This document shows, piece by piece, positions 50,363 to 56,684 of a stretch of 64,000 nt of DNA (position 1 is its first letter; each line of letters begins with the position of its first letter). The notes beneath the pieces were generated by a model. That model did not search any database. It was not told the origin of the DNA and saw only the letters and a program-made list of their open reading frames with translations. Origin of the DNA: Armatimonadota bacterium. Its GTDB lineage: Bacteria; Armatimonadota; Fimbriimonadia; Fimbriimonadales; GBS-DC. The position numbers and the translations under genes are program-made. The stretch spans positions 1-64,000 of the forward strand of contig JBBIJY010000014.1 in NCBI GenBank assembly GCA_037445735.1, read 5' to 3'.

Positions 50363-51952
50363 TCAGTGACCCTTCCGCAGGATTCTGCCAGCGCGGTTGC
50401 CAGTGAACTGCCCGTCGCGCAGCACCCAGCGCCCGTTGAGGATGAGATGCACCACGCCTTCGGACAGCTGATGCGGCTCGCGGAAGGTGGCACGGTCGGC
50501 GATGCGGGCATCATCGAACACCACTATGTCGGCATATGCGCCTGGATGCAGGGTGCCGCGATCCGTGAGTCCCAGTCGGGCAGCGGGCAAACCTGTCATT
50601 TTGAAGATGGCTTCTTGCAGGGTCAGCAGTCGCTCTTCGCGCACATAGCGTCGGATCACGCGCGGGAAAGTGCCATAACTGCGCGGGTGAGGGCGTTCCG
50701 CGCTCATCTTCTGCGGGTCATAGCCGACACCATCGGAGCCAATCATCGTGAGCGGGTAGCGCAGCACCGTGCGCAGGTCATCCTCACTCAGATTGAAGCA
50801 GGCGACGCCCACATAGAGACCATGCTCCAGCAGCAGGTCAATCACGAACTCTTCGGGCGATTGATTGGCAGCGGCGGCGGCTTCCGCAACGGTCAGCCCC
50901 TGCAGGGATCGATTGCCTGCCACTGAGCCAATCATGATGCTGTTCCAGTCGTCGTGCCGCTCGCGCATCTCCTGCACGATGCGTTCGCGGGTTGCGGGGT
51001 CGCGCAGGCGCTCGTACACTGCCTGTGGCTCGCCGTTCAGTACCCAGCTTGGCAGGCAGGCGACGCCCATCGAAGTCTGGTACGCCGTGTAGGGGTAGAC
51101 ATCGAGCATCACATCCAGCCCCTGCTTGACCGAATCGGAGACCCTCTGCAGCGTTTGCTTGACCTTGCCCCAGTTGGCGCGTCCTTCGGCTTTGTGGTGC
51201 GATAGCTGCAGGGGCAGTTCGGCGCGTTCGGCAATCTCGATGGCTTCCGCCACGCTCTCAATCAGGTGGTCGCCCTCGCTGCGCAGGTGGGTGGCGTAGA
51301 ACCCGCCGTACTGCGCCGCGACCGTCGCCAGCTCAATCAGCTCCTGCGTGTCGGCGTAGCAGCCGGGCACATACTCCAGCCCGGTGGAGAGTCCCCACGC
51401 GCCCGCCTCCATGCAGGTCGCCACCTCACGCTTCATCGCTTCGAGTTCGGCAGGCGTGGGACGACGCTGGTCGAAGCCCATCACTTTCTTGCGCAGTGTG
51501 CCATGCGCACACAGGAAAATCACATTGGTGCCGACGCCGCGCTCTTCCAGCTGGCGCAGATGCTCGTCGAAACTGTTCCAGTTGACCTCCGCACCGTAGG
51601 GCTTGAGCCAGCGCTGCTCCTGCTGGAAGATGGGGGTGGTGTCGGTTTGAGCGACACCCAGCCCGCAGTTGCCGACCACCTGCGTGCCCACCCCCTGATA
51701 CAGCACGCTCAGCTGTTCAGGATGGTGCGGCAGGGAGAAGTCGGAATGCGTGTGGATGTCGATGAAGGCGGGCGCCACGCATAGACCCGCCACATCCACC
51801 ACCATGCCCGCCTCCCAGTCGTCCAGCGCGCCCATCGCGACGATTCGGTCGTCCCGAATGGCAATATCTCCCCGCTGAGCGGGCGCGCCTGTGCCGTCAT
51901 AGAGCGTGCCACCGCGCAGCAGGAGGTCGCAACGCCGATGAACCAGTTGCAT
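50363..51952 (-). CDS. N-acyl-D-amino-acid deacylase
   Basis: FIDIHTHSD, GNCG, GLSTGLEYVPG, THLRSE, SHHK, DVYPY, GSDG and HPRSYGTFPR motifs. Confidence 0.92.
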   Translation of the reverse strand: MQLVHRRCDLLLRGGTLYDGTGAPAQRGDIAIRDDRIVAMGALDDWEAGMVVDVAGLCVAPAFIDIHTHSDFSLPHHPEQLSVLYQGVGTQVVGNCGLGVAQTDTTPIFQQEQRWLKPYGAEVNWNSFDEHLRQLEERGVGTNVIFLCAHGTLRKKVMGFDQRRPTPAELEAMKREVATCMEAGAWGLSTGLEYVPGCYADTQELIELATVAAQYGGFYATHLRSEGDHLIESVAEAIEIAERAELPLQLSHHKAEGRANWGKVKQTLQRVSDSVKQGLDVMLDVYPYTAYQTSMGVACLPSWVLNGEPQAVYERLRDPATRERIVQEMRERHDDWNSIMIGSVAGNRSLQGLTVAEAAAAANQSPEEFVIDLLLEHGLYVGVACFNLSEDDLRTVLRYPLTMIGSDGVGYDPQKMSAERPHPRSYGTFPRVIRRYVREERLLTLQEAIFKMTGLPAARLGLTDRGTLHPGAYADIVVFDDARIADRATFREPHQLSEGVVHLILNGRWVLRDGQFTGNRAGRILRKGH

Positions 51953-51985: not shown

Positions 51986-52402
51986 TCAACCCTGCACACA
52001 GCGCAGGTGAACCCAGCCGCGGTTGGCATCGCGGGTGATGGGTTCGCCGACGGCAATCGTCTGGCGGCAGATGCGGCAGAAGCCCTCATAGCGGGCGGGG
52101 ATACTGTGCTGAACGGGAGCGTTCATGCAGTCCACATGCACCCAGCGCCCACTTCGAGCGTGGCGCGTGATCAGCGCACCCTGTTGAATCGGTTGCAGGC
52201 AGGCGGGGCAGGTGCCCTCATAGCGAGCAAAGAGCAGCGGTGCACCCGCTTCCAGCAACTGCTCGTGTTGCTCCGTCAACAGGGCGAGCAGCTCACTGGC
52301 AAGGAGATCGATCTCTATAACCGACTCGTTCGATACGCGCGGAGGCGACTGATCTGGTTTGCCCTGCTCGACCCAGCGGCGATTTTCCGGGATTGGCTTC
52401 AT
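51986..52402 (-). CDS. Protein with two tandem CxxC...HxxC zinc-finger repeats
   Basis: ARYEGTCPACLQPIQQGALITR...GRWVHVDC and ARYEGFCRICRQTIAVGEPITR...RGWVHLRC. Its ATG overlaps the upstream stop codon (ATGA). Confidence 0.8.
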   Translation of the reverse strand: MKPIPENRRWVEQGKPDQSPPRVSNESVIEIDLLASELLALLTEQHEQLLEAGAPLLFARYEGTCPACLQPIQQGALITRHARSGRWVHVDCMNAPVQHSIPARYEGFCRICRQTIAVGEPITRDANRGWVHLRCVQG

Positions 52403-53886
52403 GCGGGACTCTCCTCCGTGTCGGGGGATGGCGCTTCGCTTCGGGGTCGTGGTGCGGGCGGCGCCTTCTGGCGGGGCGGCTTCAGGTAGCCACTGATGCC
52501 GTCCAGCCCGGTTGCCAGCAGGCTACCCGCCTCGCAGGAGCAGAGGAAGCAGCTCGGATTGCGTTCGGCTTCGGCGGGGAACGCCTGCTGCGCCACCAGG
52601 TCGTAATAGACATACGGCTGCGCGGGCAGGCAGCCCGTGGTCAGCTTCACGAACTCCCACACCAGCAGGTTCGCCACGACGCCGTTCAGGAACACCACCT
52701 GCGGGTTGGGTATCCGCTCGCCCTGAATGTAGCCGTGCTGGATCGACATGGCACGCTGTTCGGGCGTGAGCTGCTCTTCCACGCTCTGGCGCACCAGATG
52801 CCCGACACAGCTGAGGCAGGCGGTCTCGCCCGGCAGGATGAGCTGCACCTGTCCGCCGCCCTGCGCGATGCGTCCCGCCTCCGCGCGTATGCCGACGCCC
52901 GCGTCCAGATAGGGGATCAGCGCGCACACCGCCACCAGGTTCAAATACTGGCGCACGGTCGCGCTGTCCACCGCGCCGATCAGCACATCGCTTTCGAGCA
53001 GGGTGGTCAGCAGTTCGGGCGAGCGCGCATCGGCGGGCAGGGGCATGATGGTGCGCCATTCGGGGCTGCGAGCACGATTGAACCAGAGTGCGAGCGCCTT
53101 CACCTTGCGCCAGCGCCGAATCGCGCGATACCAGGTGGCGCCCACGATACGGTTCAGATTGCTCAGCTCCAGTCGGTCGGGGTCGATCAGCGTCAGATGC
53201 CCGACGCCGAGCAGGGTGAGCGCCTGCGCAATCTGGGAGCCAAGCCCGCCCGCGCCCACAATCGCCACGCGCAGGTGGCTCAACAGCGCCTGACCCTCCA
53301 CACCGAGCGCGCGCACCTGACGGTCGTACAGCTCCCGCTGGGCTTTGTCCAGCTCCGGCGGTGCAAGGTCAGTCGCATAGCGCATCTCGCAGGGCAGCCC
53401 CACGATGCGGATATGCTCAATCGGCACCACCTGCTGATTCACATAGTCCCACATGTGCCCGTCGAAGCCCATGTCGGAGCCGAACACCAGCGTGCCATGC
53501 CGAAACGGGGGCGACAGCACCTCGGTGACGCGGAACTTCTGATAGTCGCTCTGGTGATCAATCGAGGAGAAGCGCGGTTGAGGCGTCCACGGATGGGAGT
53601 GGGCTTCCAGCAGCGACCAGCCCTCCGCTTCACAGCGCGTCAGCAGGGCATGCACGAACTCCGGGCGGGTGATGACGCGACTGGCGGAGCGCTCCTCGTA
53701 GGCGTCCGGCGGCACCTCCACCAGCTCGCGCACAAGGAACACCGCTCGCCCTGGCAGCTCCAGCGTGCGACACAGCATGAAGCACTTCGTCTCGACACAG
53801 CGGTCAGCGAGAAGCGCTTCGGTGAGGCGCGTCCAGAGCGTGCGCGTGATGCGTACCTCGCCACACAGAGCTTGCAACGGCTCCAC
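52399..53886 (-). CDS. JAB/MPN metallopeptidase fused to a ThiF/E1-like adenylyltransferase
   Basis: N-terminal E...HSHP-x7-SxxD (JAMM). C-terminal YDRQ, VGAGGLGS, DPDRLELSNLNR, GAVDS, CLSC and CFLC. Confidence 0.9.
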   Translation of the reverse strand: MEPLQALCGEVRITRTLWTRLTEALLADRCVETKCFMLCRTLELPGRAVFLVRELVEVPPDAYEERSASRVITRPEFVHALLTRCEAEGWSLLEAHSHPWTPQPRFSSIDHQSDYQKFRVTEVLSPPFRHGTLVFGSDMGFDGHMWDYVNQQVVPIEHIRIVGLPCEMRYATDLAPPELDKAQRELYDRQVRALGVEGQALLSHLRVAIVGAGGLGSQIAQALTLLGVGHLTLIDPDRLELSNLNRIVGATWYRAIRRWRKVKALALWFNRARSPEWRTIMPLPADARSPELLTTLLESDVLIGAVDSATVRQYLNLVAVCALIPYLDAGVGIRAEAGRIAQGGGQVQLILPGETACLSCVGHLVRQSVEEQLTPEQRAMSIQHGYIQGERIPNPQVVFLNGVVANLLVWEFVKLTTGCLPAQPYVYYDLVAQQAFPAEAERNPSCFLCSCEAGSLLATGLDGISGYLKPPRQKAPPAPRPRSEAPSPDTEESPA

Positions 53887-53889
53887 TCC

Positions 53890-54339
53890 CTATCCGCGTC
53901 GCCAGCGTTCAAACGCCTTCTTAATGAGTTCGCAAACGCTCAGCAGGGAATGCCCTGCCAGCGGGTTCGCTGCAGGGTGCCACTCGTGGATATGCAGGCA
54001 GCAGGCGGTCCAGCCCTTCAGTGCCGGCGGCGCCTCACGGAACTGACCCCGATTGGGGTCATAGGAGGTGTCGCCGTAGAACACATGGGGCGGACGCTGC
54101 CCGTTCGCTAAGCGCAGGTTGTAATCCACATAGAACCAGTCGGGTGGGGTCTGGGGGTAGTGACGCGGCAGCAGGATCAGCACATCAGTGGTGGTGTAGT
54201 TGTAGCCACGGGGGAGCGGGAAGTCGTGAATGATGACCCACTCCCCGTCCTCGTCGTCATAGGAGGCTTGCTTCGTCTGCGAGTAGTGCGTCGCAGCGAG
54301 CGCCGCCTCGTAGGCGATCCGCTGCAGGCGTGTGTTCAT
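53890..54339 (-). CDS. Prokaryotic E2/UBC-like conjugating enzyme (family E-like)
   Basis: WVIIHDFPLPRGYN, LILLPRHYPQTPPDWFYV, LRLANG and WTACCLH...W.P resemble prokaryotic E2 family E and the E2 YP..PP...CL pattern. Confidence 0.8.
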   Translation of the reverse strand: MNTRLQRIAYEAALAATHYSQTKQASYDDEDGEWVIIHDFPLPRGYNYTTTDVLILLPRHYPQTPPDWFYVDYNLRLANGQRPPHVFYGDTSYDPNRGQFREAPPALKGWTACCLHIHEWHPAANPLAGHSLLSVCELIKKAFERWRRG

Positions 54340-54369
54340 GGTGTCATCCCCGTGACAGCGATCCAGGGC

Positions 54370-54570
54370 TTAGCCGATACCGTCCTCCCAGCGCGGCAGC
54401 TCGGTGACGGCGGGTGCGCGGCGCACCACTTCCTGCGGCGTGGTCGGCTGAGATGGAGTGATCGGCGTGTTCAGCGTGGTCGGGTCGTTCGTGGTCGCAG
54501 GCGTCAGCGTAATCTCATAGTCGATGCCGTTCAGGCGAACCTTTTCCTTAACCGCGTTACCTGTTGGCAT
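54370..54570 (-). CDS. 66-aa Gly-terminated peptide, candidate modifier or substrate of the E1/E2/JAB operon
   Basis: GAGGTG RBS before ATG 54570, GGGGTATAAT upstream, host-like codons, ends PRWEDGIG*. Confidence 0.7.
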   Translation of the reverse strand: MPTGNAVKEKVRLNGIDYEITLTPATTNDPTTLNTPITPSQPTTPQEVVRRAPAVTELPRWEDGIG

Positions 54571-54588
54571 ATGGAACACCTCACCCCT

Positions 54589-54611
54589 ATTATACCCCAA
54601 ACCTCTGTCAA
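54589..54611 (-). promoter_or_regulatory. Promoter of the ubiquitin-like operon (GGGGTATAAT -10)
   Basis: Perfect TATAAT at 54589-54594. TTGACA lies only 11 nt upstream, so it is doubtful as a -35. Confidence 0.6.
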
Positions 54612-54716
54612 GAGTTCCCTGCAAAGGGGAGAAAAAATCCCGTTTCGCCTCCCAGAGGCATCGATAAAGCAGGAAAAGGGTGGCTGGCTGACGAATCATC
54701 CACACTGTGAGGTGAG

Positions 54717-56684
54717 ATGATGGAGACGATGCAGACCACAACGGCGATTGAGGCGTTGTTGCAGGAGCAGCGGGTCTTCCCGCCTTCGGACGAGTTTGTG
54801 CGACAGGCGAATATCAGCGATGCGGCTATTTATGAAGAGGCGGCGCGCGACTATGAGGCGTTCTGGGCGAAGTGCGCCGAGATTCTCGACTGGTATCAGA
54901 GATGGCACACGGTGCTGGAGTGGAACCCGCCCTATGCGAAGTGGTTTATCGGCGGCAAGCTGAACGCCTGCTACAACTGCGTGGATCGGCATGTGAAGAC
55001 ATGGCGGCGCAACAAAGCCGCGCTCATCTGGGAGGGCGAGCCAGGCGAGGAGCGCGTGCTGACCTACAACGACCTCTATCGCGAGGTGCAGAAGTTCGCC
55101 AATGTGCTGAAGGCGCTGGGCGTGCGCAAAGGCGACCGTGTCTGCATCTATATGCCGCTCATCCCCGAAGTGGTGATTGCGATGCTGGCGTGCGCGCGAA
55201 TCGGTGCGCCCCATTCGGTGGTGTTCGGCGGGTTCAGCGCGGAGAGCCTCTCGGATCGAATCAACGACGCGCAGGCGAAGGTGCTGATCACCGCCGATGG
55301 CGGCTGGCGCCGCGGCTCGATTGTGCCGCTCAAGCGCAACGCCGATGATGCCCTGCGCAACACGCCCTCCATCGAGAAAGTGGTTGTCTATCAACGCATT
55401 GGCGGCGACTACACCGTGCCGATGCAGCAGGGGCGCGACCTCTGGTGGCACGAGCTGATGGCGAACGCACCGCTCACCTGCGCGCCAGAACCGATGGACA
55501 GCGAAGACCTGCTCTATCTGCTCTACACCTCCGGCTCCACAGGCAAGCCGAAAGGCATCATGCACACCACCGGCGGCTACCTTGTGGGCGTTGCCCTCAC
55601 CACCCGATGGGTTTTCGACCTCAAGGATGAAGACATCTACTGGTGTACCGCCGATGTGGGCTGGGTCACAGGGCACAGCTATATCGTGTACGGTCCGCTG
55701 GCGAACGGGGCGACCTGCGTGATTTACGAGGGCGCACCCGACTATCCCGACCGCGACCGATTCTGGGCGATAGTGGAGAAATATCGGGTGAACATCCTGT
55801 ACACCGCGCCGACCGCCATCCGCGCCTTCATGAAGTGGGGCGAGGAGTACCCGCGCCGCCACGATCTGAGCAGCCTGCGCCTGCTGGGCACCGTCGGCGA
55901 ACCTATCAACCCCGAAGCGTGGATGTGGTACCACGAGCATATCGGCGGCGGACGCTGCCCGATTGTCGACACATGGTGGCAGACCGAGACGGGCATGATT
56001 ATGATCACGCCGCTACCCGGCATCGTGGCGACCAAGCCCGGCTCCGCCACCAAGCCGTTTCCAGGGGTGTTCCCGGACATCTTCGACGAGCAGGGCAACC
56101 CGGTGCCGCCGAACAGGGGTGGCTATCTGGTGCTGACACGCCCCTGGCCGGCGATGACGCGCGGGCTGTACGGTGACCCCGAACGCTTCCAGCAAATCTA
56201 CTGGAGCCGATACCCCGGCATCTATTTCACGGGCGACGGCGCCAAGCGCGATGAGGACGGCTACTTCTGGCTGCTGGGGCGCGTGGACGATGTGATCAAT
56301 GTGTCAGGGCATCGCCTCAGCACGATGGAAATCGAAAGCGCGCTGGTGGATCACCCGGCAGTCGCCGAAGCCGCCGTCATCGGTAAATCGCACGAGATCA
56401 AGGGTCAGGCGGTGGCTGCCTTCGTGATTATCAAAGAGGGCTACACCGCCGATGAGCGATTACGCGAGGAACTCAAGCAGCATGTGGTGGCGAAAATCGG
56501 CGCGCTTGCCCGACCCGATGATATTATCTTCACCGCCGACCTGCCCAAAACGCGCAGTGGCAAGATTATGCGTCGCCTGCTGCGCGATGTGGCGGAAGGG
56601 CGCGCACTGGGCGACACCACCACTCTCGCAGACCCCGCCGTCGTGCAGGCGCTCAAAGAGAAATACGAGGGTCAGGAAGAGTAG
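54717..56684 (+). CDS. acs: Acetyl-CoA synthetase
   Basis: [48 protein letters not shown] and [15 protein letters not shown] motifs. Confidence 0.97.

Follow-up and report, generated by a model that had tools for sequence, protein, structure and literature searches.

How little does ubiquitin-type tagging need? Conjugation of this kind is thought to need a modifier with a beta-grasp fold, and a compact operon in the chromosome of an Armatimonadota bacterium bears on that view. The operon lies on the minus strand of a 64,000-nucleotide stretch of DNA (GenBank assembly GCA_037445735.1, contig JBBIJY010000014.1, positions 1 to 64,000; hereafter the window) and encodes, in order, a 66-residue peptide, an E2-like protein, a JAB/JAMM peptidase fused to an E1 adenylation domain (JAB-E1), and a fourth protein with two zinc fingers. 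A first-pass annotation, made from the DNA letters alone, had described these genes as a conjugation-type operon with E1, E2 and JAB functions. This has been borne out, except that the operon is not an orphan design; its best matches are BubCD and BubB, which mark it as a relative of the Bub/6E systems.

The type I Bub system (formerly 6E.1), in the accessible text of the preprint by Ye, Gong, Chambers & Corbett (10.1101/2024.11.21.623953), has three genes, encoding BubAB, BubCD and BubE. BubAB is a fusion of one to three ubiquitin-like (Ubl) domains with an E2 domain, and is cut by the JAB domain after a conserved Gly. The E2 domain carries an "invariant" Ser333-x-His335 together with Asp299, and its chemistry is that of an oxyester. 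BubCD is a JAB-E1 protein with a crossover loop that lacks Cys and holds the invariant Tyr370. The third product, BubE, is a serine protease of the DUF6527 family, and "all Bub operons possess bubE" according to the same text. Bub has been presented as the sole branch without catalytic cysteines, and the operon in the window, with an E2 from a family in which the nucleophile position switches between Ser and Cys, bears on this as well. Could a tyrosine oxyester hand its cargo over to a cysteine? How might adaptors with a short motif stand in for E3s? And, given the near-universal presence of the operon in one bacterial family, outside defence islands, do bacteria use such tags for housekeeping regulation?

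Our answer, which we consider probable, is that the operon is a derivative of the Bub/6E conjugation family that has become fixed in the chromosome and is specific to its lineage. This is based upon homology, residue conservation, gene order and genome distribution, and, for the adenylation-binding step, upon a modelled interface between E1 and the tail of the peptide. The proposed relay would begin with the JAMM domain of JAB-E1 trimming the 66-residue pre-modifier after Gly64. The E1 domain is predicted to bind the last 13 or so residues of the modifier only, and would adenylate Gly64. The acyl group would then move to Tyr386 in the Cys-free crossover loop, as in BubCD, and on to Cys114 of the E2, with His116 and Asp67 beside it, forming a thioester in place of the serine oxyester of Bub. 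A final transfer would be made to an amine on the target. The fourth protein would dock through a KPIPxNRRW motif, and its zinc fingers would determine location or the choice of target; a membrane anchor appears to replace the fingers in distant relatives.

As for the role of the operon, we lean slightly toward a resident stress or regulatory tagging system over a classical mobile defence module. More tentatively, as a proposal that falls somewhat short of probable, it may be a working tagging system from which the beta-grasp has been wholly lost. Such a system would combine a mostly disordered tag of about 64 residues, E1 recognition via the last 13 or so of these, a relay from Tyr oxyester to Cys thioester, and interchangeable KPIPxNRRW adaptors, either zinc-finger or membrane-anchored, all resident family-wide. 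With the modifier seemingly reduced to a hairpin and an E1-binding tail, the operon would be a natural test of how little ubiquitin tagging needs, and a compact set of four proteins from moderately thermophilic-looking lineages is suited to testing the minimal substrate need of E1.

The conjugation enzymes

The JAB-E1 gene (52,399–53,886, minus strand) has a GTG start and encodes 495 residues, with the JAB/JAMM peptidase at approximately residues 1–170 and the E1 adenylation domain at approximately residues 172–470. The JAMM, ThiF/E1 and double zinc-finger motifs quoted in the first-pass annotation are all present in the translations. For the JAMM domain these are E32, H96-S-H98-P, a run of seven residues and S107-x-x-D110, and for the E1 domain GAGGLG at 211–216, SNLNR, C357xxC360 and C446xxC449. 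The ThiF half of the fusion is strongly matched in Pfam (8.4e-36); the Prok-JAB half has a weak match (0.054), and here it is the alignment to BubCD, from residue 12 onward, that speaks for the JAB region. The best match in the PDB by phmmer is Citrobacter BubCD (9ea4_A, 3.5e-24), over residues 12–425 and both domains. In this alignment siqhGYIqGe of the window falls opposite qlerGYItGv, the motif that holds Y370 of BubCD.

Loci in other genomes are referred to here by number (L023 and so on). In 15 of 15 orthologues of JAB-E1, E32, H96, H98, S107, D110, the GxGGxG loop, D307, the four zinc cysteines and Y386 are invariant. The crossover-loop Tyr is retained, with no Cys after the CxxC, in all of eight diverse JAB-E1 sequences, two of which come from canonical Bub loci in the phylum. 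A PADLOC search, which had been suggested as a way of finding a name for the system, names none. On the operon NCBIfam and PADLOC return generic E1 matches only (best PADLOC E1-E2 model 8.3e-17), and nothing else in the operon matches a PADLOC model below an E-value of 0.05. The end of JAB-E1 is of a different kind in one genus (L025, L028, L030–L034 and L037), where it reads KPIP(A/T/P)PRG and then G, S or Q. This tail, which is absent from the protein in the window and from its genus, resembles both the KPIPxNRRW of the fourth protein and the RGG end of ubiquitin. In two of these loci, L028 and L034, a stop codon separates JAB-E1 from the zinc-finger gene.

The E2-like gene (53,890–54,339, minus strand, 149 residues) had been identified as an E2 in the first-pass annotation, with a Prok-E2_E match expected, and Pfam agrees (PF14462, 6.9e-14, 52.1 bits against a cut-off of 25). 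Its best PDB match by sequence is Citrobacter BubB (9eae_C, 2.1e-6). The candidate active-site residues are C114, which stands at the position of the Bub Ser, H116 and D67, the last aligned with D299 of BubB; the window reads C114-L-H116 within CCLHI. Cys114 is kept in all members of the family to which the window belongs. Among 71 homologues the nucleophile column holds Cys in 37 and Ser in 29, with 5 unaligned, the Ser types including the canonical Bub-type WSRH. The His two residues further on is present in 66 of the 66 aligned homologues, and Asp67 in 69 of the 71. Close relatives differ at the nucleophile, with GSLHI, CSLHL and GCLHI all occurring, which is the variation that would be expected of an interchangeable catalytic residue. 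Two other observations concern E2 genes elsewhere. In L024, L028, L030 and L031, and not in the window, the protein is prolonged at its C-terminus by an acidic stretch that closes with (D/E)DPF and one further residue, and that could be another short docking motif. In L060, from a genome outside the family, the E2 is frameshifted and no JAB-E1 is present, for which an assembly error is possible.

Could these enzymes serve a pathway other than conjugation? If they belonged to a system for sulfur carriage or small-molecule biosynthesis, like those of ThiS, MoaD and QbsE, JAB would trim, E1 would adenylate and a thiocarboxylate would form. The E1 domain does match ThiF/MoeB models, and JAB trimming past a C-terminal Gly is known for the sulfur carriers QbsE/QbsD and CysO/Mec+. 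However, an E2 whose nucleophile, His and Asp are invariant is always found alongside, and among solved structures the closest relatives are the enzymes of Bub conjugation. The genome has a separate canonical ThiF/MoeB-type gene elsewhere. Among the scanned neighbours, in the window and at eight relatives' loci, there is no rhodanese or cofactor-biosynthesis gene, in keeping with the earlier statement that no thiamine or molybdopterin genes are near. We therefore consider a sulfur-carrier system very unlikely.

The peptide and its modelled contact with E1

Is the small open reading frame (ORF) ahead of the E2 gene a gene at all? The peptide gene (54,370–54,570, minus strand) encodes 66 residues from its ATG. 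Comparison was made with 20 relatives' loci from 17 genomes of the family, and by tblastn the peptide ORF is directly upstream of the E2 gene in 20 of the 20. The orthologues are 61–70 residues long, and in an alignment of 20 sequences, from which L038 was left out due to an in-frame stop, their identity to the window ranges from 47% to 95%. Codon differences are mostly at the third position, with 6098 there versus 3724 at position 1 and 2962 at position 2. This pattern of substitution, together with the constant adjacency to E2, indicates that the ORF is not there by chance. On these comparisons it is a real conserved gene, placed in what would be the slot of the modifier. The stop in L038 falls between IND and EFE, where its sister L039 has Q, and may be an assembly error. 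A longer ORF of 123 residues with a TTG start (54,370–54,741) was rejected as spurious; it overruns both the promoter and the start of the divergent acs gene, and the relatives share the 61–70-residue part alone.

The peptide has a conserved N-terminus, VKEKVRxNxxEFEIxL, and a Pro/Thr-rich middle linker of variable length. Its end is L58-P59-x-W61-x-D63-G64, invariant in 20 of the 20 aligned sequences, and is followed by one to four variable residues, such as IG, GLR, AF, AC, ATKR and APA. In the window the tail has two residues, I65 and G66, and the codon for G64 is at 54,379–54,381. Three distant copies (P0043, L061 and L063) stop exactly at the invariant Gly, that of P0043 ending in LPRWEDG. 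Because I65 and G66 lie in the variable tail and G64 is invariant, the conserved, operative glycine appears to be G64, with the terminal G66 of the window an accident. The "Gly-ended" label that the peptide had been given was thus attached to the wrong residue.

No match to the peptide was found in Pfam (Multi_ubiq included), NCBIfam, PADLOC or PHROGs. Searched with a profile of the peptide, 1.84 billion cluster representatives yielded only 10 matches, all of 54–85 residues, and no form fused to E2. In a sample of 401 genomes from the phylum the peptide is found in the family of the window only, aside from two weak, unverified matches. An AlphaFold2 model contains a beta-hairpin at residues 7–22 (block predicted local distance difference test, pLDDT, 86) and is otherwise irregular apart from short helical turns towards the C-terminal end, with a mean pLDDT of 69. 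By hhalign the peptide aligns with that of L061 over the hairpin alone (86.7%). The earlier claim that there is neither a canonical beta-grasp Ubl nor a CD-NTase here is supported, and the suggestion of a non-canonical small modifier seems right in outline. From gene position and the resemblance of motifs, it is likely that the peptide lost a beta-grasp core and kept the first hairpin and the tail.

How would E1 recognize such a peptide? The complex of E1 residues 172–470 with peptide residues 1–64 was predicted, each partner having its own alignment. The score was 0.67 (0.67, 0.58 and 0.68 in three runs), and none of three controls exceeded 0.00; the pass mark for this score admits 116 of 157 solved complexes and 2 of 215 mismatched pairs. 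At least 90% of contacts recur between runs, and the pLDDT of the partner is 46 or higher. Only peptide residues 52–64 make confident contacts with E1, at residues 211 and 213–216 (the GxGGxG loop), 305–309 (around D307), 329–332 and 342–346. The model supports binding of the peptide tail in the adenylation pocket of E1.

It may be, instead, that the small protein is a regulator, a pseudo-substrate or an E1-binding factor, and that the machinery conjugates another C-terminus, in the way that Cap2 of CBASS conjugates a CD-NTase; the tail of JAB-E1 itself or the product of a gene elsewhere would be candidates. The peptide has no beta-grasp fold in its AlphaFold2 model, and E1-type enzymes of type II CBASS do act on C-termini that are not those of Ubls, according to the discussion section of the Bub preprint (10.1101/2024.11.21.623953). 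There is also a candidate in the JAB-E1 that ends in KPIPAPRG plus G, S or Q and recalls the RGG of ubiquitin; this, though, is a feature of one genus, and the window's protein and genus do not have it. Against such a role, moreover, the peptide is in the Ubl slot at 20 of 20 loci, has its invariant Gly at or near its end, and is modelled in the adenylation pocket. Conjugation of a different C-terminus is therefore unlikely, and we retain the peptide as the putative modifier.

The fourth protein, chromosomal setting and promoter

The fourth gene (51,986–52,402, minus strand) encodes 138 residues. The protein has a near-constant N-terminus, M(A)KPIPxNRRW, then a variable and often acidic linker, and then two repeats of the form ARYxGxCxxC...WVHxxC. 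The repeats hold tandem C2HC fingers, C65xxC68...H89xxC92 and C109xxC112...H132xxC135. Residues 51–138 are modelled by AlphaFold2 with a pLDDT of 82–96 per block of ten residues. In Pfam the matches are sub-threshold, to the RING-like zf-ANAPC11 (24.4 bits, cut-off 25) and to DUF2175, and PF20137 (DUF6527) is not matched. The similarity to RING domains is thus below threshold, and the E3-like role put forward in the first-pass annotation is hypothetical; the protein may be an adaptor, a substrate or a regulator. The protein does match phage protein family phrog_1581, of unknown function, at 9.3e-18; tblastn against phage records found no match. The ESM Atlas returned unnamed clusters alone (0.90–0.91), and a word-based homologue search with the finger region found 3 close relatives only.

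The second finger alone is present in L035 and L036, which are loci without JAB-E1. These single-finger forms, together with the internal repeat, argue for two independent fingers. The N-terminal motif is also carried at the start of the fourth gene in L032. In L061, L063 and L107 the fourth gene keeps this motif, as EIPxNR or QIPINRRW, and a transmembrane helix replaces the zinc fingers. The constant part of the fourth protein, as judged from these sequences, is thus the short N-terminal motif. The motif would dock onto the machinery and the C-terminal part would set location or target.

The gene-neighbourhood comparison that the first-pass annotation had proposed finds the operon block conserved across the family of the window, which belongs to the order Fimbriimonadales. 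PF14462 is present in 21 of the 24 other genomes of this family and was not found in any of the 16 genomes that represent the order's four other families. At the 20 family loci, by tblastn, JAB-E1 comes after E2 in 14, and 17 have the zinc-finger gene; L023, L024 and L040 have peptide and E2 and no recognisable zinc-finger gene. Close homologues come from sources named as Fimbriimonadales or Armatimonadota. A pattern-limited scan of 185,579 species genomes gave 32 loci, of which 30 have at least 68% identity and are from Armatimonadota, Fimbriimonadales or "bacterium" records; the other two are L107 and L108. Outside the family, peptide, E2 and JAB-E1 are kept together at three loci, L107 and, in another Armatimonadota family, L061 and L063, with JAB-E1 identities of 46–53%. 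The E2 of L061 and L063 is of the Ser type. Peptide and E2 are found without JAB-E1 in L023, L024, L027, L035, L036 and L040, with the zinc-finger gene in L027, L035 and L036, and in each of the five host genomes of such loci that were checked a JAB-E1 is encoded elsewhere. These extra peptide-E2 modules, with or without the zinc-finger gene, are a layout of one E1 and several E2s.

The neighbours of the operon in the window are a divergent acetyl-CoA synthetase gene, a closely following amidohydrolase gene and genes for CN-hydrolases, AccA, a NuoL-like subunit, histidine kinases and MacB. Among the Pfam matches of the neighbours at 1e-5 no mobile-element or defence gene was recognised, and the neighbours within approximately 14 kb are housekeeping, as had been noted from the sequence when no obvious defence island was seen. 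These flanks are shared only with L029, a locus of the same genus; six other family loci have different, mostly housekeeping, flanks. The more distant copies in L061 and L063 adjoin a Replic_Relax gene, and in L063 also a TrwB-like coupling protein and a phage-type integrase, which suggests an integrative conjugative element. Because these more distant copies adjoin conjugative-element genes, the lineage has a mobile past.

Does this past mean that the same chemistry acts against phages or mobile elements, as in Bil, CBASS and, by proposal, Bub, with the operon as a fixed defence module? The setting of L061 and L063 is in favour of it, as is the match of the zinc-finger domain to a phage family. 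Near one family locus there is an RE_BsaWI-like gene, near one a DNA methylase gene, and canonical Bub operons of the same phylum carry helix-turn-helix (HTH) and Peptidase_M78 regulators resembling CapH/CapP. On the other side are the near-universal occurrence in the family, with housekeeping flanks that differ between genera, and the lack of any adjoining CapW or CapH/CapP regulator; PADLOC, too, sees a generic E1 domain only. In addition, the accessible text of the Bub preprint reports no protection against phage for any Bub operon tested (10.1101/2024.11.21.623953). A defence role is a substantial possibility and yet the lesser one, and a resident stress or regulatory role is slightly preferred.

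The arrangement and transcription signals of the operon complete its description. The four genes had been described as co-oriented on the minus strand, and the coordinates and spacings all agree with the ORF listing: going from the peptide to the fourth gene, the first two gaps measure 30 and 3 nt, and the last two genes overlap by 4 nt (ATGA). A TATAAT promoter had also been proposed. The TATAAT box is present (54,589–54,594, minus strand), 18 nt ahead of the peptide ATG, and between the two is a purine-rich, Shine-Dalgarno-like run, GGGGTGAGGTG (54,577–54,587, minus strand). A nearby TTGACA is only 11 nt upstream of the box, which is not a canonical spacing, and a sigma-70 scan found no site on the minus strand. 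What the box does belong to is a promoter-like element, GGAAC-N19-TATAAT (54,589–54,618, minus strand), recognised by reading the sequence and by motif counts. It occurs once in the 64-kb window versus 0.09 expected by chance, and the exact element has 7 copies in the genome versus 0 for the reversed control. The element or a near variant is readable upstream of the peptide gene in most of 21 upstream regions compared, and it may define a class of promoters in this lineage. Of the six further genomic copies, four are followed within 1–7 nt by a start codon, a hint of leaderless transcription; one copy precedes a 54-residue Cys-rich protein resembling ribosomal protein L33. Downstream of the operon an Amidohydro_3 gene (50,363–51,952, minus strand) begins on the same strand 33 nt beyond the end of the zinc-finger gene, and no terminator-like sequence separates the two. 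It may be co-transcribed with the operon in the window and in L029, a link that is absent in other genera.

Has the operon simply decayed, as a non-functional remnant of a Bub-like operon that is without its Ubl and BubE? The drastic reduction of the modifier, the in-frame stop of L038 and the frameshifted E2 without JAB-E1 in L060 would fit. However, the catalytic residues are all invariant across 15–27 orthologues, the substitution pattern is of the coding type, the promoter architecture is conserved, and extra peptide-E2(-ZnF) modules have been gained in several genomes. Decay is extremely unlikely as an explanation.

Comparison with known conjugation systems

The operon shares with type I Bub a JAB-E1 fusion that is homologous across both domains, a Cys-free crossover loop with an invariant Tyr (Y386 here), a Prok-E2_E family E2 with its accompanying His and Asp, and a modifier that is coded directly upstream of E2 and has a conserved Gly at the processing point (predicted to be G64 here). 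It differs in that it has no CapW or CapH/CapP regulators and in that it is found in nearly all the searched genomes of one family, in varied chromosomal contexts, and not on a mobile island.

Several further points weigh against a working derivative of Bub/6E. Three of these are differences from Bub itself: Cys here replaces the "invariant" Ser as the E2 nucleophile; the modifier, 61–70 residues long and without a predicted beta-grasp, is a protein in its own right and not part of a Ubl-E2 fusion; and in place of DUF6527/BubE there is a zinc-finger protein with an N-terminal motif. Within the genome, which is 99.2% complete, neither PF20137 (DUF6527; E-values up to 0.1) nor PF14452 (Multi_ubiq) was found. 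The system has no deconjugase other than the JAB domain. The AlphaFold2 model of the peptide is built from 20 sequences at a pLDDT of 69, and folding upon binding would be compatible with it. When the profile of the peptide was aligned by hhalign with the 70-residue beta-grasp Ubl of a neighbouring clade (L067), the probability was 0.13, and homology was thus not detected. Solved E1-Ubl complexes exist (BubCD-BubA, ThiF-ThiS), and the complex score may in part reflect a remembered tail-in-pocket geometry. For the zinc-finger model, Foldseek found nothing in the PDB at an E-value of 0.001 or lower, the best being RING-H2 entries at 0.016 with high root-mean-square deviation, and VIA-align gave Z-scores of at most 3.5, to C1, RING and other small fingers. 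By sequence, the operon is a diverged relative of type I Bub/6E, and in view of the three differing features it is not filed here as a member of Bub. In titles and abstract openings no Cys-type or mini-modifier Bub variant was found, although the operon catalogue of the Bub preprints (Table S1) could still list one.

Canonical Bub-type loci are present in the same phylum. L062 and L065 have Multi_ubiq, Prok-E2_E (scored for L065), JAB-E1 and DUF6527, and carry divergent HTH and Peptidase_M78 genes like the CapH/CapP regulators. An older description is that of operon type "6e" by Iyer, Burroughs & Aravind in 2006 (PMC1779556). In the accessible text of that paper, 6e, like the operon here, combines an E1-like module carrying an N-terminal JAB with an E2/RWD-like protein; it also has an additional Zn-finger protein, for which the authors suggested a possible E3-like adaptor role. 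The 6e Zn protein has the signature C-x3-C-x35-38-H-x2-C, whereas the fingers here are tandem C-x2-C-x(20)-H-x2-C; it is presumably the protein now called DUF6527/BubE. The same text describes the 6e E2-like domains as without cysteine, and the 6e Ubls as single or tandem beta-grasp domains.

Loci with a single-beta-grasp Ubl, Prok-E2_E and JAB-E1 are L066 and L067, from other Armatimonadota, and L108, from an Omnitrophota record. The enzyme families are the same as in the window, and the E2 nucleophile column is Cys in L066 and L067. Unlike the operon here, these loci keep a ThiS-like Ubl of about 68–81 residues, which in L066 is fused to a Cys-type E2. The Ubl ends at or near the start of E2, as RFRWG in L066, RVKGG-C in L067 and KFKRG in L108. 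JAB-E1 is longer in L066 and L067 and is split into two genes in L108, and no gene with a KPIPxNRRW motif was seen at the three loci. In size and predicted disorder the peptide here is similar to the tag of the Pup/PafA system, which is short, largely disordered and about 64 residues long. The enzymes of that system are unrelated, with a glutamine-synthetase-like ligase and side-chain carboxylate chemistry.

Modifier, E1, E2, JAB and a small zinc-finger protein are also packed together in the Caldiarchaeum E1/E2/RING/Rpn11 operon, as described in the accessible text of PMC5654768. There the modifier is a true ubiquitin and the zinc protein a RING; here RING is sub-threshold and the fingers resemble a tandem duplication and not a cross-brace. 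Type II CBASS differs from the operon in having Cap2 as an E2-E1 fusion and a CD-NTase as the conjugated protein, whereas here E2 and E1 are separate genes and there is no CD-NTase. What the operon would have in common with Cap2/Cap3, as far as its sequences indicate, is E1/E2/JAB chemistry directed at a C-terminal tail and not at the body of a beta-grasp.

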